Shown piece by piece: positions 2,037-43,296 of a stretch of 64,000 nt of DNA. Within the stretch, counting starts at the first letter, position 1; each line of letters starts with the position of its first letter. The notes beneath the pieces are model-generated. The model was given only the letters and a program-made list of their open reading frames with translations. It was not told where the DNA came from and did no database searches. A program made the position numbers and the translations under genes. The DNA comes from Pseudomonadales bacterium. Its GTDB lineage: Bacteria; Pseudomonadota; Gammaproteobacteria; Pseudomonadales; GM7GCV1. The stretch is from NCBI GenBank assembly GCA_965221105.1, contig OZ244871.1:831673-895672 (forward strand), in the 5' to 3' direction.

Positions 2037-3056
2037 TCACTGCCCAATTGCCTCAACGAGCTGCACGGCTCGAATGCGAGACTCCACTAACCTGATTGCC
2101 CTTGCTTTCTGCTCATGTGGCATATAGCCGCGTTTAATCAGGTCAATGATCTTCTTCTGATCGCTCTCGAGTCTGGCGATGAACGTTCGAACTGGTTTTT
2201 CCCGTAATCCAAGCCGCCGCCCCAGTTCAAGGAAATCGGAGCCGGTATAGTAGCCATAATGGTTGTAGATATCGGAAAAGTACTCACTGTCGTGCTGCCG
2301 GTCATGTAACAGCCCCAGTGCCAACAGCCCCGGACCGGAATCGTTCTCTCCGAACGCATCGCACAAAAGGCAATCGTAATTCGGAGTGAGCCTGTCATAG
2401 AAGAGAGTGTTGTTGTCTGCACGTCTCTGTACGCTGAAATTCTTCAGGTGCAGATCGTCATTACCTGTAATATAGGCGAGAATCACTCGTCGAACGAAGT
2501 CCAGCACAACGGCCTGCTTGCCGTTCGTGACTTCATTAACACGCTGACCGGCTTCCTCGTAGGTCTTCCCGTACTTATTATCACCCGGCAGGTTGAAGCA
2601 TTGCATCAGATCCTCCTGATGCAGTTTACTGCCGTCATCCTGCCGGTCGAATCGTTTGGTAATGTATGCCAGCTCTCCGCCTTCAAAGCTCACCAACCCA
2701 CATTGGGCGGTTTCAATTCCCAACAGTCGGCTGACCTCCATGGCGGTATGTTCATTTTCAGCCGCATGCGGATAGGCTTCCGGGCTGGGTTTGAGTATGT
2801 ACTCTCCCCCCTTTGCAGTGGCCACCAATTCATGTTTTTCATTTTCTCTCAGGGAAAGCTTCTCCTGCGCTCCCGAAATTGACATGCCCTGTATATGCTG
2901 CCGGCTACTTTGGAAAAACCCGGCGCGTGAGAACGGCAAGCACGGGTTCACCCTGGTGCTGCCAAAGAGTGCCTTGAGCGCAGTATCCTGGTACCCGGGC
3001 CTGCTGCGTTTTCCGGTCAGTTTTTTTAAACTGATTTTGCAGTATTCAGTACTCAC
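2037..3056 (-). CDS. hipT: HipT-like Ser/Thr kinase toxin (HipA C-terminal kinase core without N-subdomain)
   Basis: 339 aa with a GTG start. Gly-rich loop MSISGAQEKLSL carries an S59-I-S61 motif, and GNDDLHLKNFS is the catalytic-loop motif of HipA-family kinases. It is the third gene of a hipB-hipS-hipT arrangement. Confidence 0.8.
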   Translation of the reverse strand: MSTEYCKISLKKLTGKRSRPGYQDTALKALFGSTRVNPCLPFSRAGFFQSSRQHIQGMSISGAQEKLSLRENEKHELVATAKGGEYILKPSPEAYPHAAENEHTAMEVSRLLGIETAQCGLVSFEGGELAYITKRFDRQDDGSKLHQEDLMQCFNLPGDNKYGKTYEEAGQRVNEVTNGKQAVVLDFVRRVILAYITGNDDLHLKNFSVQRRADNNTLFYDRLTPNYDCLLCDAFGENDSGPGLLALGLLHDRQHDSEYFSDIYNHYGYYTGSDFLELGRRLGLREKPVRTFIARLESDQKKIIDLIKRGYMPHEQKARAIRLVESRIRAVQLVEAIGQ

Positions 3057-3769: not shown

Positions 3770-3852
3770 TTTTATATTCAGTACAGTATATTTCAAGCAG
3801 ATAAAATATATTATTATGAATATATAAATTAATATTTTAAGTAATTATATTC

Positions 3853-4664
3853 GTAACTACTCGCCCCCTCCTCCTTCTTGATCATGTCGGCGGCGATGCC
3901 GTTGAGGGCGATGTGGATGGCAGTCAACGGATTGTAGCCTTGGTGGGCCATGGACTGGAGCGAGCTGGAGATTCGGCAGTGGGCCTGGGCGTGACGGAGG
4001 GTTCGGAAGCAGCCGGAGACCTTCTGCTTGACCTTGGCCATGCGGATATCGCGCTCGGCGCGGGTGTTGGTGAACGGGGTATTGCGGGCGAAGCGCAGCA
4101 CCTCGGTGTCGTACTGGGTCAGCGCCTCGTGGAGGTTCTCGGCATCGGACTTGGCGATGCGCCCGCGCTGTCCGTCGAGACGGGCGGGGGGCTTGTTCCC
4201 CTGTGGCCTGGGTGAGGATGGTCCGGGAGCGCGCGCACGGCCGTGAAGGCTGCCTCGTCGAGGGCCTTGGCGTCGAGTTCGCTGACCCTGCGGCAGGTTC
4301 CGCTCAGGAGGTGGCCCAAGCGCTTGGCCCAGGCGTGGCCGCGGGCGTCCTCGACGAACCTGAGGTCGTGCAGCAGGTGGGCACCGCACAGGGCGTGCTC
4401 ACAGTGATCTCAGGCGAAGGAGCTGGCCCAGCGGTCGTGGACCAGGGCGCCACCAGAGCGGGGGATGACAGTGAGGTCGTCGATGGCGGCGCGACCGCGC
4501 CTTCGGTGGACGAACGTCACCCTCAGGTCCCCGGCACCGATGCTATGCAGCCAGTGGTTCGTGCCATCGACGCGCCTGATCAGGGCCTTGAGGGTCTGCG
4601 CGGCCATGAAACGCACACACCATAGAACCTCTTTCCTATAGCGTCAAGGGGGGTGAGCAGTTAC
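3853..4664 (-). mobile_element. IS66-family element, internally deleted (about 0.8 kb), transposase in broken frames
   Basis: Ends are GTAACTACTCGCCCCC (3853) and the reverse complement GTAACTGCTCACCCCCC (4664). ORF fragments carry IS66 transposase motifs: DGTNHWLHS..LVHDRW and FTNTRAERDIRMAKVKQKVSGCFRT..AHCRISS. Confidence 0.8.
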
Positions 4665-4696
4665 CAAGGTACATAATGTCAGAGAAAGGCTGCATG

Positions 4697-4733: not shown

Positions 4734-4853
4734 AAGCCTGACGATGACCTACTCTCGCATAGCGAAGCGCTACACTACCATCGGCGATACGCCGTTTCAC
4801 TTCTGAGTTCGGAATGGGATCAGGTGGTTCCAACGCTCTATGTTCGTCAGACA
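4734..4853 (-). rRNA. rrf: 5S ribosomal RNA
   Basis: Minus strand reads TGTCTGACGAACATAGAGCGTTGGAACCACCTGATCCCATTCCGAACTCAGAAGTGAAACG..GAGAGTAGGTCATCGTCAGGC, the canonical bacterial 5S. Ends are approximate (+/-3). Confidence 0.9.
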
Positions 4854-4995
4854 AACCGGTCGGCAGCCTGTCTGCAACAGACTCCCGGAAGTCTTAAAAA
4901 CGTGAATAACTGTACGTATCACATCAGTGTCTCACACACCCACATCAATCGCTTGTGTTTTCCAGCACATGGAACAGCACAATCGCACATTATAT

Positions 4996-7864
<2,869 letters not shown>

Positions 7865-8054
7865 ATATAATGTCAACGACTGTGCTTTTTGAGCTGGAAG
7901 GCGGCTCACTTTTCCCGGAGAGAATCCGCTGCCCTTGCGGGGGCCAGACACTCTCACACAAAACAAACCACCTACTTTTTCTACTCAGTAACGATTGATA
8001 TAAAAACAGATGTCTATAGAGACACGTGCCTTGATACAGTTACAGTTATCCACA

Positions 8055-8067
8055 TTTTTAAAGAACA
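8055..8067 (-). promoter_or_regulatory. boxA-like antitermination element in the tRNA-Ala/23S spacer
   Basis: Minus strand TGTTCTTTAAAAA, compared with the boxA consensus TGCTCTTTAACAA. Confidence 0.55.
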
Positions 8068-8158
8068 TTTGGCTCACAGGCCAAAAAACAACACCCTCAA
8101 AAAGGCCCTGTTTTTTGAACTTGAACCCAGGTCAATCTCAACCTCTGCCAGCATGGGT

Positions 8159-8234
8159 TGGTGGAGCTATGCGGGATCGAACCGCAGACCTCCTGCGTGC
8201 AAAGCAGGCGCTCTCCCAGCTGAGCTATAGCCCC
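8159..8234 (-). tRNA. tRNA-Ala (anticodon TGC)
   Basis: Minus strand GGGGCTATAGCTCAGCTGGGAGAGCGCCTGCTTTGCACGCAGGAGGTCTGCGGTTCGATCCCGCATAGCTCCACCA. Cloverleaf and anticodon were read by eye. Confidence 0.95.
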
Positions 8235-8399
8235 ATTGCCACGCCAACAGAAGCCAACAGAGAGTCTTGCTACCCGGCATCGGGGGCGGCCATTGTACGC
8301 AAATCGCGACCTGAAGCAACATCTTTTTTGCCTGCTCTACAGACGATTAAAACATCATATTGTGACCAGACACATGTCTCGATACTACCGGCTGAGTCA

Positions 8400-8769
8400 T
8401 AATGTAGTGCTCAGGCCGAAAACAGCGGCGGAAATCGTTCGCGAGGCGGTGCTCGAACTCACCTACACAGCGCATGACATGGCACCCTTCGCCCGCGACA
8501 TCGGCTACGTAGACGAAGCTGGCAAAGTGCAACCACCGTTCCCCTGGGACGAAGACCGACGAATTCGCCTCCGCGCGAAACTCGATGCGCTGTATTTCCA
8601 CCTCTACGGCATCACCGAGCGCGACGACATTCGCTACATTTACTCAACCTTTCCCATCGTTGAAAGACAGGAACGCGAGGCCTGGGGTTGCTATCGCTCC
8701 CTCGACCTGTGCCTCGCCTGGTTCAGCGCACTCTCCGCAGGCCGACCAGACGAAACGATCTCTCTTTAA
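8400..8769 (+). pseudogene. C-terminal fragment of a large N6-adenine DNA methyltransferase / type IIG-like R-M enzyme
   Basis: The tail of ORF 8236..8769 reads ..IRLRAKLDALYFHLYGITERDDIRYIYSTFPIVERQEREAWGCYRSLDLCLAWFSAL. I recognise this as the conserved C-terminal tail (LDA.YFHLYG...D..YI..TFPIV.R.E...G.YR) of large methylase/restriction fusion proteins. No N-terminal catalytic part is present. The start coordinate is approximate. Confidence 0.5.
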
Positions 8770-8886
8770 AAAAAGCTTGCTGAGTCAATTATGATCTTTG
8801 CAGGAGTACTTTTGGCGCACTCATAACGAGAGGTGTCTGATCTATAGGTATGTACGGACGCTACAGGATATCATCAGATGATGCGA

Positions 8887-8963
<77 letters not shown>

Positions 8964-9156
8964 ATTACGAGCCCACCTTCGCCATCCCCAACCAAGCGCT
9001 ACGAACCCAGCCTGCTCTGAATACGGATCAGGGGATCGTCTGCTTCAACCCTGCTCCATCGAGCCCGGACACTGTTTCCGGTTTCAAGAATCTGGTACTT
9101 GTAACGAGTGGCACAAGCTGCCCGGAGTCCGGAGGCTGGCCCGAACCGGGGCGCGC

Positions 9157-9184
9157 ATTGTACACCCCGGCCTAACCGAGTCAA
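9157..9184 (-). promoter_or_regulatory. putative sigma70 rRNA-type promoter upstream of tRNA-Ile
   Basis: Minus strand TTGACT-N16-TACAAT followed by the GC-rich discriminator GCGCGCCCC, about 190 nt upstream of tRNA-Ile. The architecture matches the 16S promoter at 23256..23283. Confidence 0.5.
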
Positions 9185-9344
9185 GCACAAGGAATGATCC
9201 ACCGTACGGATCCACGCCACCGATCGTGGACAGTCCTGCTGTCAATTCGGGGCCATTCTAGGGAATGGATTGGGGAGACCGGCCCCGTTGATAACAACAT
9301 CCGGAACAGCGAGCGTGATCGCGGACACACTGTCGAAATCACGG

Positions 9345-9461
9345 GAAACAGGCGAGAACCCATTCATGGGCAGAGTCCGAGCCAGTGCATCCCGCTCTTT
9401 GAGCACTTGCACAGACTGGGGCCACCGGGGTTCGTCTCCGGCCGTCAAGCGGAGTCTACGG
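9345..9461 (+). repeat. 117-nt conserved, hairpin-rich IS leader segment (copy 1)
   Basis: About 90% identical to 13385..13504. Contains hairpins CCCA-TTCA-TGGG, GCTC-TTT-GAGC nested in CCAGTGCA/TGCA..CTGG, and CCGGGG-TTCGT-CTCCGG. Confidence 0.8.
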
Positions 9462-9500
9462 CGTTATACGCGCCTGTCATGCTCCCTCGAACAGCTTGGC

Positions 9501-11667
9501 CTGGTGACACTCGAACCGGTGGGCGACCGGGCTGACCGCCATCGCTGGGAGGCGATGATTGACACCCATCATGAATTGGGATGGAATCGGTCACCCGGCG
9601 GCCAGATGCGCTACTGGGTCCGCTCGGCGCGCCAGGGGGTGCTCGGTGGCATCGGCTTTGGGTCAGCGACCTTTCAACTGAAGGCGCGGGATGACTGGAT
9701 TGGCTGGTCGAACGATGCCCGCGCTGAGAACATCACCCGGGTGCTGTGCACCCATCGCTTCCTGGTGCTCCCTGGGGTGCGTGTCCCGGGTCTGGCCTCG
9801 CAGGTTCTGAGGCTGGCCACGGCGCGGGTGGCCGATGACTGGGACGCGCGGTATGCAGTGCGACCGGTGGCTGTGTATACGCATGTCGCCGCACATCACA
9901 GCGGATACTGTTATCAGTGTGCGGGCTGGACGGTGGCGGGACGTACCAGCGGACGCAGAGCAGGGTCCGGGACACCGGGAACCGTGCGGGTGCTGCCGCT
10001 GGAGGCAGACTGGCAGGAGATCCTGTGTCAGCGGCGCCATCGCCCGATCGGGTCGCAGGTCGGTCTCTACGATGGTGCTGAGGTGGACTGGGCGCAGCGG
10101 CAGTATGGCCGCTGCCGCCACCCTGACGGGCGAGTGCGGCGGCGGATCGTCGAGATGGGCCGGCACTGGATGCGGACTCTGGGGGAGGATCTGACGATGA
10201 TCTTCCCGACCAGGGCGGCACAGAAGGCGGCGTACCGCCTGGTCTCGAATCGAGGGGTGACCATGGAGCATATTCTGGACGCACACTATGAAGCGACGGC
10301 TGATCGCTGCCGCCACCCTGACGGCCGAGGTGGCGCTCATGCTTCAGGACACGACAGTGTTGAACGACAGTACCCTGAAGGCCACCGAGGGACTGGTTCC
10401 GAGTGGGGGTGGCGGCACGGGCAGCCGGGGTCTTCTGGCCCATGCCGGTCTGGCGGTGACACCGCAGGGTCTGCCGCTGGGGCTGTTCAGCATGGAGACC
10501 CGGTTCCGTGATGAGCCGGACAGCGCGGGGACGACCGGGACGAGACAGGCACACACGACAGAGCGTCACCGCTGGATCGCCGGCCTTAGACGGGCACGGG
10601 AAGTGGCCGCCGTCTGCCCGGACACCCGGGTGGTGACGGTCTGTGACCGCGAAGGTGACTTCTGGGCGCTGCTGGCGGAGGCGGACCGTCAGGGCGATGC
10701 GCTGCTGGTGCGCGCCAGCCGTTCGGCCCGGCGGCAGGTACTGACCGCCACTGGAGACAGGGCCTGTCTCTGGGCGCAGGTGGCTGCCACCCCGGCGGTG
10801 GCGATCACGGAACTGACCATCCCCGCCGCTGGCGGCACGCGCGCCCGCAGGGACCGCACTGCCCGCCTGGAGATCCGTGCAACGCCGGTGCAGCTGGCAC
10901 CGCCGGACGAGTCCGCAGGCAGTGATCCGCTGCCCCTGTATGCCGTCTCGGCCACCGAGACGGACGCCCCGGAGGGCACTGACCCGCTGCACTGGCTGCT
11001 GGTGACGACCGAGCATCCGACCCAGGATGAACCGGTCGCCATGCACGCCGCCACCCTGCTGGACTGGTACCAGTGCCGGTGGGCGATCGAGACCTGGTTC
11101 CACACCCTGAAAACCGGTCCCCGGATCGGGGATCGCCGGCTGAACCATGGCGATGACCTGCGCACCTGTCTGGCCTGTGATGCGGTAACCGCCGTGCAGG
11201 TCGCCAACCTGACCATGATGGCGCGGGAGCATCCAGAGACCCCCGCCACTGAGGTGCTCCCTGCTGAGGACATCGACCTGCTCCATACCCTGCTGAGATC
11301 ACAGGGTCATCCGATGGTCGAGGCGCGATCCGCCAGCACCACCATTCGGGCGGTGGTCATCGACATCGGGCGCCTGGTTGGTGCCCATCCCTCTGCGCGT
11401 CAGCCACTGCCAGGCACCAAGAAGGTCTGGCAGGGGCTGGAACGGCTCAACTGGGCGGTGCAGGTACGGGATGCTCTTGGCGAGAAACAGCAGAAAGAGC
11501 GCCTGCGGCCTGGTACATCCGAACACCCAGTGACCGGTCACCGGACAGATGACTGGACGACCTGCTCTGGGGTGCTGACGACACCCCGCCCAGCGGGGTG
11601 GCTCTGGATACCAGCCTCACCCCACAGGAACCAGTCCACTCCTGAATCGCGCCCTGAACCGGGCTGA
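9501..11667 (+). pseudogene. DUF4338 (DruA-like domain) fused to Tn5-like DDE transposase, split by a frameshift near 10300
   Basis: Frame 0 (ORF 9270..10511) contains W.AMIDTHHELGW..QMRYWV..RDDWIGWS..THRFLVLPGVRVPGLAS..YCYQCAGW (DUF4338-like), then DWAQRQYGRCRHPDGRVRRRIVEM..AAYRLVSN..ILDAHYEAT (Tn5 N-terminal DNA-binding region). Frame +1 (ORF 10288..11667) continues ..VALMLQDTTVLN..VCDREGDFW..DWYQCRWAIETWFHTLKTG (DDE core). The start codon is uncertain. Confidence 0.7.
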
Positions 11668-12232
11668 CACCCCCCTGTCCTCGACAGATGCTGAAGCACA
11701 ATGGATGTCTGGTGGGTGCTGCCTGCAATCACATATACAAGAATGACCTATTGAAAGGTTACGGATACCCCGATGACGCCCATGATGCCCGGAGGGATGA
11801 GGACGGCGAGGTCGTCACGTTCACCGACGGCGATCTTGTCCATGGGTTTTGGTTGCACGCGGCGAATGTCGGCGTCGCCAGACCGGTCCCTGCACCCGCA
11901 ACATTTCTGAGCCTGGAACCCTCGACCACATATGTGGCGCAGCTTGTTGTCGGTGAGTTGAGGGACCGGGGAGGCAGGGTTGTGACGAATGACGTCGTGA
12001 GCGGTGCCGCCAGCCCGATCAACGGGAAAAAGCCCAAGCCGGTGCTGGCCCAAGTCTGCTTTGAGACGGCCGCCGGCACCAGTTAGCGGTCGCGCTTGCG
12101 GGGGGCCGGCCCGGCCAGCGCATCACGCACAACACCGAGTTCCGGATCCGCTTCGGACAGCACAAGGTCGCCCGGCGGATCACGCATTTCCAGTTCGCGA
12201 TCGAGACCGATGAACCCCAGACTCGCAAGGTC

Positions 12233-19980: not shown

Positions 19981-20252
19981 GTGAGTGTCAGTCCATTTTC
20001 AGGGTCGATGCCGCCGCTGTCACATCCGTTGCGGCCTCCCCGATTACGTCAGTCGTCGTCCCGGATGTCGAACACTACATTTTGGCGCGGATTGTGGGCC
20101 AGGGTGACGATGAGTCGGTTTGCGGGATTGTCCCTGACCGCATTGTTATTCGTCGCCGCCACAAGGTAAGCTTGGGCTGCGGAGCCTGCGGCCACGGTAG
20201 CGCCACACAAAGTGAGTGGACACTGTGGCCATGTCAACCTCTCCTGAAATCT

Positions 20253-20380: not shown

Positions 20381-21201
20381 TCAGCGCCGCACATCGACCG
20401 TGACATCACACCATTTGGCATAGGCTGGCGCACCGGCCGCCTCCAGCTCTGGCGTGGGCCAGCTGGGCGGGCCGCAATGACGGTCGGTCCGAAAGGTGGC
20501 CCCATAGCCTGCAGCATTGGCAACGAAAGCAAAGCCCGGGGGCGGCGTGGGGTTGTTCAGGTTCCAACAGCGCTGCACATTGGACGCAGCTGCATGACAC
20601 ACCTTGCCCCAGATCCGCACTTTGAAAATGCCGTTGCTCGGGGTCCGGGTCGGGGTGAACGAGTCACCTTGCTGAGTCGGTGTGTTCCCCGTGTATTGGC
20701 CAGTCAGGGGGGTTACATCGTCACTCGCTTCACTGCACCGCGGGTACCCTTTATTGGCGGTGAACGTCCGGCCCATGAAGGTCACGCTGCGCGAGCATTT
20801 GCGGGTCGTATAGGTCTGGCAGGCGATGGCGATGGGCCCGCCGCGGGAATAGGTGCCGGTCGGGTTGTGGAATTCGACCCCTCCGCTGACTCCCGCACTC
20901 TGGGCGCAATGGGAACCGGGTCCCACGCCGAAGGTCGTCCTGTCGTGAGTCATCTCGACCTCGTCTGGATGGTCCGGTGCAGCCTCGATCGTCAGGTTGG
21001 TGACCGCGCCGGACAAGTTCCGGTTGTTCACCGAGGGGGCAGGAAAGACCAGGTTCTGGTTCAGCCCGGTCACATAAGTAGCAGCGGGCTGCGACACCCG
21101 TGAAAATCTGGCCGCCCGTTCTACCTGTGCCGATGCCGGCAGGGCAAGGACTGTCAGCAGGACGGCGGCGCACGCCTTAGGAAAGAGTCGGGGGGGGGCA
21201 T
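20381..21201 (-). CDS. Cys-rich secreted protein A with poly-C tract after the ATG; out of frame at the current tract length
   Basis: ATG at 21201 is followed by C9. One extra C gives MPPPRLFPKACAAVLLTVLALPASAQ.. in frame with ORF 20381..21097 (8 Cys). With C9 there is a stop after 15 codons. Confidence 0.6.
21190..21198. repeat. homopolymer G9 (+ strand) / C9 (coding strand)
   Basis: Counted directly in the sequence. Confidence 0.95.
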
Positions 21202-21300
21202 GTCATGCATTGTTGGTCCACGGGGCAGATACCTTCTTGAGTGCAGTAAAAAAGCTTGAGTGATACGTCAACCAGTTGTACCGCCACAAAAATGATGGGA

Positions 21301-21327
21301 TTTATAAAAGGAAAGGAAGGCTGTCAA
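21301..21327 (-). promoter_or_regulatory. possible promoter reading into secreted-protein gene A (TTGACA-N15-TATAAA)
   Basis: The -35 TTGACA is the inner end of the right inverted repeat. The spacer is only 15 nt, so this is a weak call. Confidence 0.35.
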
Positions 21328-21345
21328 CTTTCCTATGTAATTCCC
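21322..21345 (-). repeat. right arm of 24-bp inverted repeat
   Basis: Reverse complement is GGGAATTACATAGGAAAGTTGACA. Pairs with 19222..19245. Confidence 0.8.
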
Positions 21346-21346
21346 T

Positions 21347-21371
21347 AAAAAACCCGCAGCCGGGGCCGCGG
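21347..21371 (-). terminator. Rho-independent terminator about 90 nt downstream of 16S rRNA
   Basis: Minus strand CCGCGGCC-CC-GGCTGCGG followed by GTTTTTT. Confidence 0.7.
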
Positions 21372-21457: not shown

Positions 21458-22981
<1,524 letters not shown>

Positions 22982-28209: not shown

Positions 28210-29766
28210 TTAATGTCTCGGGATTGACGGCCCTGCTTTACCGTCCAGTGCCGCTTGAACAAGTGCGCCCAAGAATTTTGTAAAAGGCTCTATGTTTTGG
28301 TTTGTGCTCGCTTCTTCCAAAGCAGCCATGTAATCATTGCGCTTTTCCAGCGGCACAATCGTCCAAGGGTAGCCGCCACTGGCAAGCATGGCATTCATTA
28401 AAAAACGCCCTGTACGGCCATTGCCATCCATATAGGGATGAATATAAACAAAGATAAAATGCCCCAGCACAACACGCACAGCGGCATTTTCTTCGGCTTG
28501 CAGCAACTCAAAAAACGCTGGTATAGCATCGCGCACAGCCTCTCGGCTTGGTGGCGTGTGCATGGAACGCCGGATAAAAACGGGCGCATTCCGATAACCA
28601 GCAAGATCAGCAGGCTTGTGAATGCCAGCCGTCACTCCGGGCGCAAACATTTCGCGATACCATACGCGATGATCGTTATCGACGACTTCCCCTGCATTAT
28701 GCCCATCGAGTATCTGCTCTATGCTCTTGCGCACGGCTTGATAAGCCTGCCAATAGCCTCGGGCGGCCAAGGCATTCAGCCGCTCTTTATCATCGGCATT
28801 TTGTTCTGGGTTCCAGTCTCCAGTGCGAACGCGGTTGATCAGTTCTGGCGTGACACGATATCCCTCAATAGAAAGCGAGTGATAGGCATCTGTCACATAC
28901 ACATCTTCAACATGCTGCATGTATGCGGTTTTATCGACTGTTTGCGAGGGCGATGCGGGAAAGTGTGCTATCACTGTTTCCCGCATATCTTGCCACATAA
29001 GCCGAATACGATTGACGTATGGGGATTGCTCGCGCCCTGAGAAGCTTAGGCTGGATTGTTGTTCAAACGGGTCTGTTTCGCGCAAGTCATACCCAGCCGC
29101 GCGCATTGTACCCATAATATCGTCAGCAATTTGAGCGCGGCTAATATTCCTGAATGCCCCTGCTAAACGGCCAGCAATAGAACTATGCCCACCCTCTAGC
29201 AATTGCTCCAAGACTTCAGATGCATCACTGACCATGGATAACGCCGCGCGCATATCGGTTGGGTTTTGAGTGAAGCTTTGCTTGCTACAGGCAATCAACG
29301 CAGCAGGACGGTTGTATATACGCAGACCGTTTTTGGTCGTCACCTGAGCGGGTGACGGGAGCGTAGCGCGAATATCTAATAATGACGTGCCGTGAGGTAA
29401 TTCTGTTACATTGTTCCGTGCCTTGGTCGCTCGAACTAATAACTGTTTCGGTACAGTCATATTCTCGGTATGAAGCGCGATAGATTGCTCAGGTGATAAG
29501 CACCAGTCGTCGCCTTTTAAGTGATTAAGGTAGGCTGCACAAAATTGCCAGAAGGACGCATACCAAGCCGTGCTTTCCCCGCGCGTTTCATCGGGGCGTG
29601 CTGGTACATACCAGCCCTTGATAACTTCCTCAAGGAAGCCGTTTTGAACGAGACGTTCACGATGAGTGCGCGAGAGATCGGCAGAGCGTATGGCAACTGA
29701 GCCATGTGTCTGAAGGTCGTGAAGTGCTTCTAATGCATCAGCCAGTTTTGCGGAAGGGGTCGCCAT
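28210..29766 (-). CDS. Fic-family protein with N-terminal winged-helix (AbiEi-like) region
   Basis: 518 aa. Fic motif HPYMDGNGRTGR. The N-terminus ..SVAIRSADLSRTHRERLVQNGFLEEVIKGWYV resembles AbiEi-type wHTH. The segment is AT-richer than its surroundings. Confidence 0.85.
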   Translation of the reverse strand: MATPSAKLADALEALHDLQTHGSVAIRSADLSRTHRERLVQNGFLEEVIKGWYVPARPDETRGESTAWYASFWQFCAAYLNHLKGDDWCLSPEQSIALHTENMTVPKQLLVRATKARNNVTELPHGTSLLDIRATLPSPAQVTTKNGLRIYNRPAALIACSKQSFTQNPTDMRAALSMVSDASEVLEQLLEGGHSSIAGRLAGAFRNISRAQIADDIMGTMRAAGYDLRETDPFEQQSSLSFSGREQSPYVNRIRLMWQDMRETVIAHFPASPSQTVDKTAYMQHVEDVYVTDAYHSLSIEGYRVTPELINRVRTGDWNPEQNADDKERLNALAARGYWQAYQAVRKSIEQILDGHNAGEVVDNDHRVWYREMFAPGVTAGIHKPADLAGYRNAPVFIRRSMHTPPSREAVRDAIPAFFELLQAEENAAVRVVLGHFIFVYIHPYMDGNGRTGRFLMNAMLASGGYPWTIVPLEKRNDYMAALEEASTNQNIEPFTKFLGALVQAALDGKAGPSIPRH

Positions 29767-31660: not shown

Positions 31661-32243
31661 TCAGCGGCGGCCGCAGCCCTCGCCAGTCGAGATGAAGGAG
31701 TGGACGGAGGTGAGCTTCTCAGTAAACAGCTTGGGATTGGACCTGACCTCATCAATCTTGAAGGACATCATGCCGCTGCCGATGGCGTTGCCGCCATTGG
31801 GGTCTCGCCCGAAGCCCTTGATCACGGCCCCGGCTTTGGGCCGGATATCCAGGGTCAAGTCCCGGGTCGTAGAGCCGGTTCCAAAACTTATATTCGTTAG
31901 ATTTCCGACATCGGTCCACCCTCTTTCCTCGCGCCGCCATTCAAGCAGGCTTTTTTCATTTACAGGAATAGTGCTAAAAAAGAGGCCAAGAACTCTTGAA
32001 CCAAAGTCTTCGAAGGTGACTTCGGGGTCGGTGGACGACAGGCGCACATGATAGCGCAGGTAGTCGCCGCCGCAGCCTTCCACGTGGTAGCCGTTGATGT
32101 TGCCGGTGACGGACACCGTGCATGTCTGAGCCGTGCAGCGTCTTGACTGCGCCAGCACCGCCGATGGCAGGGCCAGCATCAGGGCCACCAGTGCGACGGC
32201 AAGGGCCGTCAGTCTAGCGGGGGGGGGTCAAAGTTATGGCCAT
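31661..32243 (-). CDS. secreted protein B with poly-C tract in the leader; out of frame at the current tract length
   Basis: ATG at 32243, then GCC ATA ACT TTG A, then C9. With C8 or C11 the leader is MAITLTPP(P)ARLTALAVALVALMLALPSAVLAQ, in frame with ORF 31661..32188 (4 Cys). With C9 there is a TAG after 9 codons. Confidence 0.55.
32219..32227. repeat. homopolymer G9 (+) / C9 (coding strand)
   Basis: Counted directly. Confidence 0.95.
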
Positions 32244-38979: not shown

Positions 38980-39443
38980 GTAACTGCTCGCCCCCCTTGA
39001 GATCATAGGAAAGAGGTTCTCTGGTGTGTGCATTTCATGAGTGCACAGGGTCATGGGCACCACACAGTTCAGTTCCAAGGCGACGGCGGGGGTGTGTCAG
39101 GCGCTGATGCCGCCGGCGATCATGGCGGTGGAGTCCGGGTAGCCCATGGCGACGGTCAACACAGCATCGCTGCGCTCGGAGTTCGACGCGCTCAAGGGGC
39201 GCTTCGAGACGCTGTGCGCGGACGCCCACGACCACGTCTGGGCCAAGCGCTTGGGCCACCTCCTGAGCGGAACCTGCCGAAGGGTCAGTGAACTCGGCAC
39301 CAAGGCCCTCGACGAGGCCCACTGCCGAATCTCAAGCTACCCAATCCATGGCCCACCAAGGCTACAATTTGCTGACCGCCATCCAGATCGCACTCAGCAC
39401 CGCCGCCACAATGATCAAGCGGGAGAAGGGGGCAAGCAGTTAC
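38980..39443 (+). mobile_element. IS66-family miniature deletion derivative (about 0.46 kb)
   Basis: Left end GTAACTGCTCGCCCCCC.. is near-identical to the reverse complement of 4600..4664. Right end is GGGGGCAAGCAGTTAC. The internal ORF joins the transposase N-terminal part (..KRLGHLLSGTCRRVSELGTKALDEA) directly to the C-terminal tail (HCRISSY..QGYNLLTAIQIAL). Confidence 0.75.
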
Positions 39444-39555
39444 GCTGGATCATTGATCGCGGTCGTTGCACCAGCTTTCTACCTGCTGTTTTGTGGAGCC
39501 GTATCGCCGTCTGCAGAGGAAATCTGGGCACTTGCACAACAGAAGTCATCAGCGA

Positions 39556-40158
39556 TCAGAAGCTGCCGCAAGTTCCAGTTCCAGTTCCCAAGCCCTGGTA
39601 CTTGTTGACCTTGATTTGGGGGGTATCAATCTCCACCCATAGTTGATCTGTTATGCCATAGCCTTTTGGCTGCATCGCCTTGAACGTGCCTGAACCTGCG
39701 GTCGACATAGTCGACGTCCAGTAGACGTTCCCAATATGATCTTCGCCAGCCTCAACAGTGACGCCGCGGAAGACGTTGGTAGGATTTCCATTGAAGTCCG
39801 TGTATCTCATGGCCGGGTATCCATTGACATCTTTGGCGATGAGCCACGCGCTAATATTTTCTGACCCAGGAGTAGGATTTCCTTCATCATCCAAAGTTGT
39901 TGTACCATACGAGATAGATGCAACACCATTCATTCCGTCTGCGTTCACAGTAGCTTTGATACAGACGCGCTGGCCCCAATCCTCTATCGCCTGCGATTCG
40001 TTCCTGGCAACCGCGGTGGTGTCAACATTCTTAAAAAAATCCTGCGCCGTTTGCGCCATTACTGCAGTTAGCGGAGACAGCATCAATGCCGCAAGCGCGA
40101 TGGCGGGTGCCGTCAGTCGTTTACGGGGGGGGGGGGGTAATTTGCTTATTGTGTTCAT
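39556..40158 (-). CDS. secreted protein C with poly-C(13) tract in the leader; in frame (ON)
   Basis: MNTISKLPPPPRKRLTAPAIALAALMLSPLTAVMAQ (Sec-type signal peptide, AXA site) followed by a 164-aa mature part with 2 Cys. The PPPP is encoded by the C13 run. Confidence 0.65.
   Translation of the reverse strand: MNTISKLPPPPRKRLTAPAIALAALMLSPLTAVMAQTAQDFFKNVDTTAVARNESQAIEDWGQRVCIKATVNADGMNGVASISYGTTTLDDEGNPTPGSENISAWLIAKDVNGYPAMRYTDFNGNPTNVFRGVTVEAGEDHIGNVYWTSTMSTAGSGTFKAMQPKGYGITDQLWVEIDTPQIKVNKYQGLGTGTGTCGSF
40125..40137. repeat. homopolymer G13 (+) / C13 (coding strand)
   Basis: Counted directly. Confidence 0.95.
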
Positions 40159-40473
40159 AGTTCTGTCCAAAGTTAGTAACTATCAGATGGTTTTGTACTT
40201 GAATTATTGGGAATTTGCAAGTACTTGTGAGGGATTTGCGCTGTAGGGTTTTTCGCCACGCCCGATGTCATTGATGGAGCAACGGTTGGCCTGCTGGAGT
40301 ACACGCTGGGACGTCAAGACGGTTCGCAGGGCCAACAATGCCTCTGGATCCGGCCCATATGAGAACGAGTGTCGTTTGGACGCGCCGGACGGGCAGGCAC
40401 CCTCCCAGGGGAAGGCCCGGCCGATGCATTGTTAACCTATCACCACCCCACACATGACGCAGTGTTGTTGTGA

Positions 40474-41470
40474 TCATCCAGAGTTCCAGTCCTCTACAGT
40501 GATTTTTCCAGCTGTGAGCGCCCTGAGTGTCCGTATGCCAGCCATGACCTCGACGGTGCCGAGCCAGAGGAGCTTGGTTCCGGGAACCGGCTGTCGTGTG
40601 CTTGGCTGAAAGCCGGCCAGCCTGCCCAGGTTCACCACATACTCACGGATGCTCAGATCAGGTGGTGCCCTGATCGGCATCTTCGGATACAGATCGTGCA
40701 GCAGCAGCTGACAGGTAGCGATCTCCTCAGGTTCGACGACCTCCCGAGCGGGCGTGTCGGGTTCGTGCTTCGCACGCCGCTGCAGATCGAACACGCGCCA
40801 GGCCGTCACCGCATCACAGGCCATGCACTTGAGCAGGGCCTCAGTATCATCGAACTGCCGCTTCTCGATCTCACAGCCGCTGTTCAGGACTCTGAAGTAC
40901 TCCTCAATGCCCCAGCGGGTCTCATACCAGCGGCAGATGCGCAGGGCCGTGTCGGCATCGACCTCCCCCTCGGTACACAGCAGCAGCCAGTTCACCGGCT
41001 CCCTGATCTGCTCGGGCGGGTCATCCTCAGTGATGGACACCGCGATCACCGGCAGACTGTCATGGCCGTGTCGTCCCCGCCGGTGCCTTCAGGTGAACGC
41101 GTGCAATCCGCAGCCCCACCTGATCGGCCAGCGCGTGCTGGCGCTCACACATCGCCCAGTCATCCCCCTCCCGGTCACAGACCGTCACCACCCGGGTCGG
41201 TGCCGGTACCGGAGCCTCGCCCTCAGCCATCAGCCTCCGGGTGTCAGCGCAGGCACTCGCCAGCTCCCCGGCCAGCTCCAGCCCCTCCACCCAGCGGACG
41301 GACTCTGTCAGCTGCGCATCATCTGCAGCACGGGCGCGGAAGTGACCGTCGATCTCCAGCACCCCAAGCACCCGGCTGCCAGTCTCTGAGAACGCCACAC
41401 TGGCATGGGCACAGATCCCCCGGGCCGTGCCACCGATGGAGGTCAGCCCCCTGGTCACCACGCTGTGCAA
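40474..41470 (-). pseudogene. IS4-family (Tn5-like) transposase, 5'-truncated and frame-broken
   Basis: ORF 40474..41049 has ..WYETRWGIEEYFRVLNSGCEIE..CMACDAVTAWRVFDL..PGTKLLW... ORF 41060..41470 has ..VVTVCDREGDDWAM.. in another frame. It is a paralog of the 9501..11667 gene. Confidence 0.75.
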
Positions 41471-41489
41471 TCCTGCAGATCCAGATGAG

Positions 41490-41627
41490 AGCCCGGATAT
41501 TTTCTTCGCTCAGCATGTGCTCGGGCACGCCAATATCCAGACCACACGAAATTACGTTGAGCCGCATGTGAGTTCCCGGCGGGAGTACATGGAGCGAATG
41601 CTTAACAGGAGAGGCTCACGTGGCTGA
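41490..41627 (+). pseudogene. tyrosine recombinase/integrase C-terminal stub
   Basis: ..DIFFAQHVLGHANIQTTRNYVEPH.. matches the conserved LGH..I.TT..Y catalytic-Tyr region. Everything upstream is replaced by the IS4 remnant. Confidence 0.55.
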
Positions 41628-41837
41628 GGCGGATCCTGCGTGAACTGCGCACAGCCCGTGAATTGACTGGAGCCGGGGATTGACGCGTCCCCTGTCAGGG
41701 TGAATACTCCCTCCCATACCATCATCCGGAACCCGCACAGGTCGAGCAGGCCGGACATTCGCTCCTGTGCGCGATGTCACGACGACCGGGCGCGGTATAG
41801 GCTTTTTGAACTCTGAACGGGAGGAATCACGCCATGC

Positions 41838-42020
41838 ATGAACGGTGAACGCAACATCGGCGACAGAATTGGCAGGTTTTTAGTCTTTGCAGTGCTGTCG
41901 TTCATCACATTTGGAATCTATCCGGTGTACTTTGTGGTGACTCGAATCGAGGAGCAGAATGTTCTGCTGGAGCAGATTCTGTCACAGGCCAGGCGCAACG
42001 AGAAAGAGTGGACGGATTGA
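41838..42020 (+). CDS. small membrane protein (DUF4234-like)
   Basis: 60 aa. FLVFAVLSFITFGIYPVYFVV hydrophobic hairpin. GGGAGGA lies 13 nt upstream of the ATG. Confidence 0.4.
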   Translation: MNGERNIGDRIGRFLVFAVLSFITFGIYPVYFVVTRIEEQNVLLEQILSQARRNEKEWTD

Positions 42021-42143
42021 GAAACGACTTAAAACGGACAGACAGGAGCATCAACCTCCTTCGGTGCAGCTCTCGCCATCCTCTTGCGCTCTACGCCAGA
42101 CTCGGAAGTACTCACGATTTCGCGCAACCCCTAATACTCATGC

Positions 42144-42494
42144 TCAAGCAGCACGCATATGCATATCCATGTGGATATCCAAGTAGGGACAGCACACTCT
42201 TCCAGAGTCGGTCCTCTCTATCAGACCCAATTCCAACAATACCTGGATATCATCATGCACGCGACGCACATCCCGCTCTATTGTGCGGGCAACCTCCCTG
42301 ACGCCCATCTCACCAGCGCCCTGTAACGCATTGACGAGCGCCCATCTCCTGGCAGTTAACTTGCCAAAAAATAATTCAGGGGATGCGAAACTGAGTTTCT
42401 CACCAAGCTTTTCTCCCTTGAAGGCCTGTTTGGCATTCTGTGCAAGTTGGCCTTTCCAATCAGGCTCGATAGTGATGGTTAAACTGCGGCTCAT
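42144..42494 (-). CDS. HTH DNA-binding protein, TumA-like putative antitoxin
   Basis: 116 aa. ..RRWALVNALQGAGEMGVREVARTIERDVRRVHDDIQVLLELGLIE is a wHTH. It starts 4 nt after the upstream gene. Confidence 0.55.
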   Translation of the reverse strand: MSRSLTITIEPDWKGQLAQNAKQAFKGEKLGEKLSFASPELFFGKLTARRWALVNALQGAGEMGVREVARTIERDVRRVHDDIQVLLELGLIERTDSGRVCCPYLDIHMDMHMRAA

Positions 42495-42497
42495 GGG

Positions 42498-42782
42498 TTA
42501 CCTCCGATTTTTCACCTCGCGAATAAAGTCTCCTATCACCTGGTCGACGCTCACAAACTTGTATGAAAATTCGTTTCCATCTAAATGACAATGATCACCT
42601 TTGCCACGTTCGTTATCGTATCCGACTACCCTTACCCCTTTCACTATATAGACCAATCGGTATTTTAAACGATGTTCACCAGGTGGCACTGGCTTCGGTA
42701 CGCGCCAGATCACCATCTCCAAGGTCTCTTCATCAGAAAGGATGTCTTTTCGCCTGAGCAGTAATTCAGCTTGAAGCGTCAT
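42498..42782 (-). CDS. TumE-like (DUF6516) putative toxin
   Basis: ..LEMVIWRVPKPVPPGEHRLKYRLVYIVKGVRVVGYDNERGKGDHCHLDG.. matches my memory of the DUF6516/TumE pattern. Start set at MTLQAELLL. Confidence 0.55.
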   Translation of the reverse strand: MTLQAELLLRRKDILSDEETLEMVIWRVPKPVPPGEHRLKYRLVYIVKGVRVVGYDNERGKGDHCHLDGNEFSYKFVSVDQVIGDFIREVKNRR

Positions 42783-43069
42783 GTTGTCAATTATGACAAC
42801 ATATGTGGTTCTGTCAACACAATTGCGCTCTGCGCCAGACATTAAAAGCGCGAAATGCAGCTGATACCAAAAGCCGAAGGCTCCGCATCAATAGCTTTAT
42901 GATGACGCAGTCCTGGACAGTTTTGTCCGCAGTGTATCTTCAAACACTATTGACTTACCGTCTGTCTGATGATGGTAATACACACGAAAATCGCACTTTC
43001 CTGTGTTTTATCGTACGCCTTGGCTGTCACACGCTGACAGAGTTACACCATGTCCTCTATACACCGAGC

Positions 43070-43209
43070 GCGACGGAATCAGCGCGATCAGCTCCTGACA
43101 CACCCCCGCCGTCGCCTTGGAACTGAAATATGCGGTGCCCATGGCCCTTCATGAAACGCACACATCATAGAATCGCCTCCCTATGACGTCAAGGGGGGTG
43201 AGTATTTAC
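43070..43209 (-). mobile_element. IS66-family left-end fragment (about 140 bp)
   Basis: The reverse complement GTAAATACTCACCCCCCTTGACGTCATAGG..GTGTGCGTTTCATGAAGGGCCATGGGCACC..TTCAGTTCCAAGGCGACGGCGGGGGTGTGTCAGG aligns with 38980..39115. Confidence 0.65.
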
Positions 43210-43296
43210 TGGAATTCTGCACTCCGGATCACCGATAATGCGGGTCCGATCCCGAACAGCACCTCATATATCCGCACCCAGGAGCGCTGCCCCGGG

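Follow-up and report, generated by a model that had tools for sequence, protein, structure and literature searches.

A poly-C tract in the signal-peptide n-region of an orphan gammaproteobacterial gene as a probable ON/OFF switch

Repeat-driven phase variation is textbook knowledge for mucosal pathogens. In Helicobacter pylori, the outer-membrane protein genes oipA, sabA and hopZ carry CT repeats in the signal-sequence region, and in Bordetella the best-known case (fim) acts in promoters; the tract of the neisserial pilC gene reportedly lies in the signal-peptide region (work of Jonsson and co-workers from 1991). Here we describe a gene, referred to as gene C, in a 64,000-nucleotide (nt) stretch of contig OZ244871.1 from a Pseudomonadales bacterium (the window, meaning this whole stretch), with a run of 13 C residues close to the 5' end of its reading frame. 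Gene C is probably a contingency locus, with a slippage-driven ON/OFF switch placed in the n-region of a Sec signal peptide. The mechanism is of a known kind, the Neisseria Opa/PilC type, while the orphan families and the ecological setting are new.

The opa genes of Neisseria contain CTCTT repeats in the region coding for the leader peptide; they switch by slipped-strand mispairing with a frequency of about 1e-3 per generation and owe most of their diversity to recombination and import (PMC3960869). The window tract resembles this arrangement in its position within a leader predicted to be cleaved, which allows switching with no change of the mature protein, in the presence of several loci per genome, and in the mosaic body of the genes; it differs in being a homopolymer and not a CTCTT pentamer, and in serving several unrelated families and not one. 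The hosts are also different, as Opa belongs to human pathogens, whereas the window-type genes occur in uncultured lineages represented by metagenome-assembled genomes (MAGs; Arenicellales, Paracoccaceae and others). The pilC gene has a poly-C/G tract within the 5' reading frame, resulting in translational ON/OFF control (PMC5953494). Gene C shares with it the homopolymeric C/G run in the 5' coding region, but PilC, a large adhesin of the pilus tip, belongs to a known family and gene C encodes a 200-residue orphan, and the window-type tract is, in addition, the place where a reusable 5' module meets different bodies. Membership in the Opa or PilC protein families is excluded by the lack of sequence or fold similarity (no Pfam or PDB match, and no outer-membrane barrel among the Foldseek matches).

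Poly-G contingency genes are described for Campylobacter (PMC8355987), and in Bordetella pertussis homopolymeric poly-C/G tracts drive phase variation and microevolution (PMC1891110). The likeness to H. pylori and Campylobacter is that genes whose products are, or may be, exposed carry simple-sequence repeats close to their 5' end and that each genome has many such loci (a 'phasome'); the repeat type or position is different, however, and those genes belong to known families in host-restricted pathogens, whereas here a multi-lineage consortium has the same genes in common. As in Bordetella, the poly-C/G tracts are found in a moderately GC-rich proteobacterium, but the window-type tracts share the leader/signal-peptide placement across families.

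Gene C and the elements of its 5' end are located in the window as follows.

39556..40158, minus strand: gene C coding sequence (orphan secreted protein with a beta-rich mature domain), 200 residues, ON at C13, with 16 homologues and an AlphaFold model
40054..40158, minus strand: region coding for the signal peptide (residues 1-35), cleavage predicted by inspection between V-M-A and Q
40125..40137, minus strand (G13 on the plus strand): poly-C tract (C13), the proposed slipped-strand switch, encoding PPPP and the first base of Arg12
40113..40123, minus strand: out-of-frame stops just 3' of the tract (TAA at 40121-40123, TGA at 40113-40115), hidden in gTAAacgacTGAc
40163..40168, minus strand: Shine-Dalgarno-like GGACAG 5' of the ATG, identified by sequence; a GGAG-like motif is also present in the relatives
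40203..40231, minus strand: promoter-like CTCACA-17-AATAAT, a consensus match only, kept in the sister genome (L011)

From 40158, the gene reads ATG AAC ACA ATA AGC AAA TTA, then C13, then GT AAA CGA CTG ACG, and every detail that had been given for the tract and its flanks in an earlier interpretation from the letters alone (the sequence-only reading) was found again on re-reading the window. In the list of open reading frames (ORFs), the frame begins at an upstream TTG (39556..40170); the start that all homologues have in common is the ATG at 40158. The tract spans codons 8-12. When the frame is computed by tract length, C13 yields the 200-residue product beginning with MNTISKLPPPPRKRLTAPAIALAALMLSPLTAVMAQ, so the window copy is ON, as had been proposed. 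The proposal that a change of one nucleotide truncates the protein after a few codons holds as well: C12 gives 14 residues and C14 gives 12, while C11 and C15 give 11 and 15, respectively. The OFF frames terminate 0 and 3 codons past the tract. Since the tract falls within the n-region of a leader predicted to be cleaved off, a change of length that keeps the frame affects how many prolines there are and not the mature protein.

The predicted signal peptide contains K6, R12, K13 and R14 (net charge of +4 in residues 1-14), followed by a hydrophobic core of 19 residues (LTAPAIALAALMLSPLTAV) and the cleavage site, without a lipobox cysteine and without a twin-arginine motif. On inspection, these are the features of a Sec-type (signal peptidase I) signal peptide, and they are conserved across the homologues. 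Residues 1-35 are disordered in the AlphaFold model, which is consistent with a signal peptide. In the region of the predicted cleavage site, there is a near-tandem duplication of 9 nt (window 40046-40063, ATGGCGCAA ACGGCGCAG, coding for MAQ TAQ), absent in the sister genome.

Only three G/C homopolymers of at least 8 nt are present in the 64 kb (G9 at 21190-21198, G9 at 32219-32227 and G13 at 40125-40137), the next-longest runs being a single G7 and C6, so that no G/C run outside the three tract genes exceeds 7 nt. Overlapping G9 matches number 7 against 1.28 expected, a count reached in 0 of 100 dinucleotide shuffles. All three runs are sense-strand poly-C of minus-strand genes, located inside codons 5-12, and each is followed by a basic patch, a hydrophobic core and an A-x-A-type site. 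The other two genes, both OFF, are the following.

20381..21210, minus strand: gene A (Cys-rich orphan secreted protein), OFF at C9; C10 (276 residues) or C7 is needed
21190..21198, minus strand: poly-C tract of gene A (C9); relatives have C22 in L016 and TC12 in L018
31661..32243, minus strand: gene B (orphan secreted protein), OFF at C9; C8 (193 residues) or C11 is needed
32219..32227, minus strand: poly-C tract of gene B (C9); relatives have C11 in L017 and C15 in L019

Thus the idea of three genes built in the same way is borne out: A and B share the design with the tract in the n-region, and B also shares the signal-peptide sequence of C. The same placement prevails in 280 kb from related genomes, where 27 of the 32 G/C runs of at least 8 nt are in signal-peptide n-regions, always as sense-strand poly-C (26 were classed by a script and one, at 198-218 of L013, by eye, as its ORF runs off the locus end). 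These signal-peptide tracts are spread over at least eight unrelated orphan families. An additional C10 is found inside the body (proline-rich region) of a family A gene (L020, 1878-1887), and some members may hold two switches. Outside any signal peptide, a C19 lies within a transposase-like ORF with the motif EWLLLTTLPV (L009, 7611-7629), which is possibly phase-variable or frameshift-controlled.

The tract of gene C was compared between the window and 15 related loci (L001-L015).

Window: C13, ON
L001: C10, ON
L002: C11, ON
L003: C6TC4 (interrupted), ON
L004: C23, OFF
L005: C10, OFF
L006: C13, OFF
L007: C13, ON
L008: C10, OFF
L009: C12, ON
L010: no tract, state not applicable
L011: C18, OFF
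L012: C12, OFF
L013: decayed (ACCCCA), ON
L014: C20, OFF
L015: C7, OFF

An uninterrupted poly-C of 7-23 nt is thus present at the equivalent position in 13 copies including the window (C7, three C10, C11, two C12, three C13, C18, C20 and C23). Five of these are ON and eight OFF, which does not differ from the one third ON expected for a drifting phase (p=0.77). All eight OFF copies retain an open frame of 180-194 codons 3' of the tract, and both alleles with a decayed or interrupted tract (L013 and L003) are ON. In all 15 copies, a GGAG-like site 7-10 nt before the ATG is followed by 2-7 leader codons and then by the tract. The species-representative loci of family C come from MAGs of Ca. Poriferihabitans, Arenicellales, Gammaproteobacteria, Rhodospirillales, Paracoccaceae, Aestuariivita and Ca. 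Azophilus, that is, from two proteobacterial classes (Gamma- and Alphaproteobacteria), with a locus GC content of 48-68%. The taxon names suggest a sponge or a similar marine host as the source of these MAGs.

Closely related genomes also differ in the length of the tract despite conserved flanks. Thus C18 stands in place of C13 in the sister genome (L011, a circular contig of 2.81 Mb), which is syntenic with the window and has flanks 97.9-98.9% identical. Between L008 and L012, which are 99.2% identical over 6.7 kb, the gene C tract measures 10 and 12 nt, respectively, and the tract of a second secreted-protein gene is G11 in L008 and G16 in L012. Alignments of the near-identical genomes show almost no other non-triplet indels beside the tracts. 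The OFF frames of 22 tract genes stop at a median of 3 codons past the tract, where ordinary genes read at comparable positions have a median of 14 (p=2e-10), which suggests selection for a clean OFF state. In addition, only 36.5% of the prolines in 23 long window ORFs are encoded by CCC, yet the tracts are pure C and not codon-aligned; selection therefore acts on the nucleotide run and not on the prolines.

The tract polymorphism, the occurrence of ON and intact OFF alleles and the immediate stops in the OFF frames agree with the slipped-strand phase switch that had been postulated for the signal-peptide n-region. As we picture it, the gene would start with a promoter, a ribosome-binding site, the ATG and seven codons, after which the C run would occupy a dispensable n-region, and slipped-strand mispairing at replication would add or remove C residues. 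At a length of 3n+1 (here 13), the ribosome would read four prolines, RKR, the hydrophobic core, the cleavage site and a beta-rich mature protein of roughly 165 residues, which would be exported and carries one conserved pair of cysteines. At other lengths, translation would end 0-3 codons past the tract at a built-in TAA or TGA, and no protein would be made. Gene C would then be one of at least eight unrelated orphan families of secreted proteins with the poly-C design, spread by horizontal transfer among the gamma- and alphaproteobacterial MAGs. Most likely, protein C would be an exposed or secreted molecule recognised from outside (by host cells, phage or competitors), and for this reason stochastic ON/OFF switching and allele replacement would pay off.

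The product of gene C is identical to P0001 of the protein collection. Among 5.8 billion clusters there are 16 homologues, none with a Pfam domain, and 7 of the 16 are annotated from an internal methionine inside or directly after the signal peptide, which is what OFF copies should give. Only four clusters at E<1e-10 came out of a profile search against 1.84 billion representatives. No relatives were found in IMG/VR, in the JGI metagenomes (by DNA pattern and by protein), or in plasmid or phage collections. Searches of Pfam, NCBIfam, PADLOC and PHROGs with protein C gave zero matches, as did a sequence-profile search of the PDB, so the orphan status assigned to the gene at the outset is retained. 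The 16 proteins of the family, at 44-78% identity, have no internal stops or frameshifts outside the tract and share 42 invariant columns, which include the core GYPxxRYxDFxGNxTNVFRGVTVxDGEDHxGNxYW (block GYP..R..D..G..TN.FRG..V..GEDH.GN.Y) and two cysteines (C66 and C197). AlphaFold gives a mostly beta mature domain (pLDDT of about 90 at residues 40-190) and a disordered N-terminus. Foldseek comparison of the model with the PDB and BFVD returned nothing significant (best PDB E value of 0.07, TM ≤0.31). Weak matches to the TbpB/LbpB and NHBA barrels (TM about 0.3) were dismissed as noise. The aromatic residue at the C-terminus had suggested an outer-membrane barrel of the Opa/OmpX type, but this reading was abandoned, as none of the fold matches supports such a barrel.

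The mature part of gene C diverges far faster than the neighbouring genes. Between the window and L011, it shows 43 nonsynonymous and 9 synonymous differences (dN, nonsynonymous rate, of 0.123; dS, synonymous rate, of 0.086), whereas in four flanking genes dN is 0.001-0.007, dS is 0.008-0.039 and dN/dS is 0.08-0.34 (Fisher test vs gene C, p=2e-5). The differences are patchy, with 17 of the 50 residues at 63-112 affected and clusters at 151-154 and 169-172, and there is hardly any change in the core or in the signal peptide (at most one amino acid change in the latter, depending on the alignment).

Several points weigh against gene C as a switch maintained by selection on an exported protein. 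The dN/dS of 1.42 for the mature part is not significantly greater than 1 (p=0.18), and positive selection on gene C is not claimed; the raised dS speaks for allele import rather than for selection in situ. The signal peptide is predicted by eye. There are no sequence or fold relatives from which a function of the mature protein could be assigned. Finally, a single tract length may be off by ±1, which makes individual ON/OFF calls soft.

Among the other explanations, the one that survives best, although it is unlikely, is a rheostat, with slippage of RNA polymerase (perhaps also of the ribosome) giving mixed mRNAs, expression set by the tract length and tuned further by poly-proline stalling (relieved by elongation factor P, EF-P). 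Transcriptional slippage is known for homopolymers, for instance for the poly-A tracts of endosymbionts and for frameshift sites of insertion sequences (IS), and tracts of 18-23 nt, as found here, reach lengths at which it occurs. The OFF alleles are common and yet keep intact ORFs, as if they were still partly expressed, and in-frame variants do change the number of prolines (PP to P12). A rheostat is, however, compatible with a switch at the DNA level, where the length does differ between near-identical genomes; the tight out-of-frame stops fit a clean OFF state better, and the documentation of slippage is poorer for C/G runs than for A/T runs.

It is very unlikely that the tract is real but of fixed length in vivo, with the ON/OFF differences produced by errors in the homopolymer consensus. 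The contig names (e.g. ctg10134_56x_c) and the note of one similar genome indicate that the assemblies are probably PacBio HiFi metagenomes assembled with metaMDBG, which compresses homopolymers in the graph and restores their lengths by read consensus, and whose authors name homopolymers as the main residual error; for this reason, the ON/OFF calls are uncertain by ±1 nt. Differences of 2, 5 and 5 nt between near-identical genomes and a range of 7-23 nt across the family are far beyond this and are thus not artefacts of the ±1 consensus kind. Moreover, the coverage given in the contig names is 56x to 1367x, and the same kilobases are almost free of other non-triplet indels.

Just as improbable is the view of gene C as a decaying accessory gene, a neutral passenger of a mobile island in which the homopolymer is a mutational hot spot of a repair-poor symbiont. 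IS remnants and toxin-antitoxin genes do surround the tract genes, the two closest alleles have a dN/dS near 1, and the ON fraction equals the random expectation. On the other hand, the 16 proteins keep their invariant columns and an open frame outside the tract, dS is 2-10 times that of the flanks, beyond what drift gives, and across classes and GC contents the tract keeps its position and the out-of-frame stops persist, in a design that recurs in the orphan families. Hardly probable either is that the prolines are the point and the C run a by-product, with no switching role, of a poly-proline n-region needed for export kinetics or for an EF-P-dependent pause. Prolines are retained in most ON alleles across three families, but only CCC is used and without codon alignment, their number varies from 0 to 12, the tract-less alleles (L010, L013) have normal signal peptides, and over half of the copies are out of frame.

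Besides its role in the proposed slippage switch, the tract coincides with the ends of exchangeable sequence. The elements concerned lie near gene A, which is found about 250 nt downstream of the 16S ribosomal RNA (rRNA) gene.

21191..21348, minus strand: portable 5' module (two TTGACA-like boxes, ribosome-binding site, ATGCATGACATG and tract), reused before three different genes
20049..20237, minus strand: 3' remnant of gene X, a fourth tract gene, intact in the sister genome

The module of about 150 nt occurs three times (in front of gene A of the window and as copies 1 and 2 in L018), with 90-94% identity; homology stops at the tract, and each copy leads into a different signal peptide and body. 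In the sister genome, the same site downstream of 16S holds P0041, with the 5' region and MHDM leader of gene A and a body only 60% identical. Another place in the sister genome has a copy, with a different leader and C22, that matches the body of the window gene A and a further 128 nt (21198-20253) at 91% identity. Past the tract, A and P0041 form a mosaic, with identities per 100 columns of 51%, then 85-89%, then 43-67%. The sister genome has an intact gene X in the ON state (C8; L018, 10056-10592), driven by the second copy of the MHDM module. Family C shows two distinct leader/promoter types before one post-tract signal peptide. The end of the module homology at the tract and the two leader types of family C indicate that the tract repeatedly coincides with a recombination junction.

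Tentatively, the tract could therefore be a universal joint as well as a switch, with portable promoter-leader modules ending in it at their 3' side and exchangeable cassettes of signal peptide and body beginning with it at their 5' side; recombination or template switching at the homopolymer might pair any module with any cassette, with slippage restoring the frame, giving a phasome at the level of the consortium against host recognition or phage. This wider proposal is possible, but we regard it as doubtful.

Homologues of family B (17) and family A (32) are found in genomes that also hold family C, and both families have variable n-regions of PP to P12 and many truncated gene calls. Remote homology among the mature parts of A, B and C was rejected, as alignment is confined to the signal peptides of B and C, and a family A model has no fold neighbour by Foldseek. 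A near-identical 13-nt leader, ATGAT[CA]CG[CA][CT]T[CTG]A (MIRF/LT), stands before the tract on three different contigs, in L007 (5998-6023, family C), L019 (3001-3028, family B) and L020 (1285-1318, family A); it was considered too short to prove common descent of the leaders.

The window has a GC content of 56%, and its 16S rRNA is at most 87.3% identical to the best matches in a limited collection, all of them Gammaproteobacteria; the organism is a gammaproteobacterium with only a distant relation to cultured genera. Gene C is placed between a PCuAC copper-chaperone gene and DsbD, adjoining degenerate remnants of a Tn5-type transposase.

40474..41470, minus strand: degenerate Tn5/IS4-type transposase remnants 5' of gene C (Dimer_Tnp_Tn5 match below the cut-off)
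39047..39113, no strand assigned: left arm of a 67-nt inverted repeat, 90% complementary to 43082-43148
43082..43148, no strand assigned: right arm, pairing with the left one and bracketing a segment of about 4.1 kb (39047-43148)

At the position equivalent to the remnants, L011 has an intact DDE_Tnp_1 gene, and the arrangement of inverted repeat and transposase is also present there. The 'IS-bounded island' of the sequence-only reading is thus probably right only in part, with a Tn5-type remnant on one side only and the segment bracketed by the 67-nt inverted repeats and not by two ISs. These repeats may be regulatory and not transposon ends, because the two arms also sit directly before PCuAC and DsbD, which are divergent genes.

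Dispersed repeats of 60-320 nt (82-95% identical) are found at 3850-4170, 4606-4675, 38980-39108, 39217-39443 and 43060-43216 of the window, and the same repeats recur beside tract genes in the sister-genome loci L016 and L018; they are possibly elements similar to miniature inverted-repeat transposable elements, tied to the mobility of tract genes. The rRNA operon is split, with 16S (21458-22979, minus strand) 12.5 kb from tRNA-Ile, tRNA-Ala, 23S and 5S (4736-8963, minus strand). The insert holds tract gene A, the gene X remnant, a TnpB remnant, an ABC-2 transporter and two glycosyltransferases, and in its 16S-proximal part the gene order is the same in the sister genome. The region 9000-12000 has a GC content of 66% against the mean of 56% and contains long overlapping ORFs on both strands without a Pfam match (e.g. 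9733-11286, 517 residues); it is possibly foreign DNA. The window is rich in genes of mobile or toxin type, such as a HipA-type toxin kinase (2037-3056), an IS66 transposase remnant (3829-4389) and a Fic-domain protein of 518 residues (28210-29766).

In literature searches, no paper linking repeat-mediated phase variation to sponge symbionts was found. For genome catalogues, the finding matters in a practical way: automatic annotation truncates OFF copies, as it did in family C, and the homopolymer consensus of long reads can flip the apparent state, so that tract genes are systematically mis-called in MAGs. If the universal-joint proposal is true, unrelated symbionts of one host (Gamma- and Alphaproteobacteria) share a horizontally traded pool of switchable orphan proteins of the surface or secreted type. 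That Arenicellales and Paracoccaceae have families with many switches in common would imply strong, fluctuating, recognition-based selection on exposed proteins in the host, and the proteins of these families are candidate molecules for how symbionts of filter feeders may escape host phagocytosis or phage.

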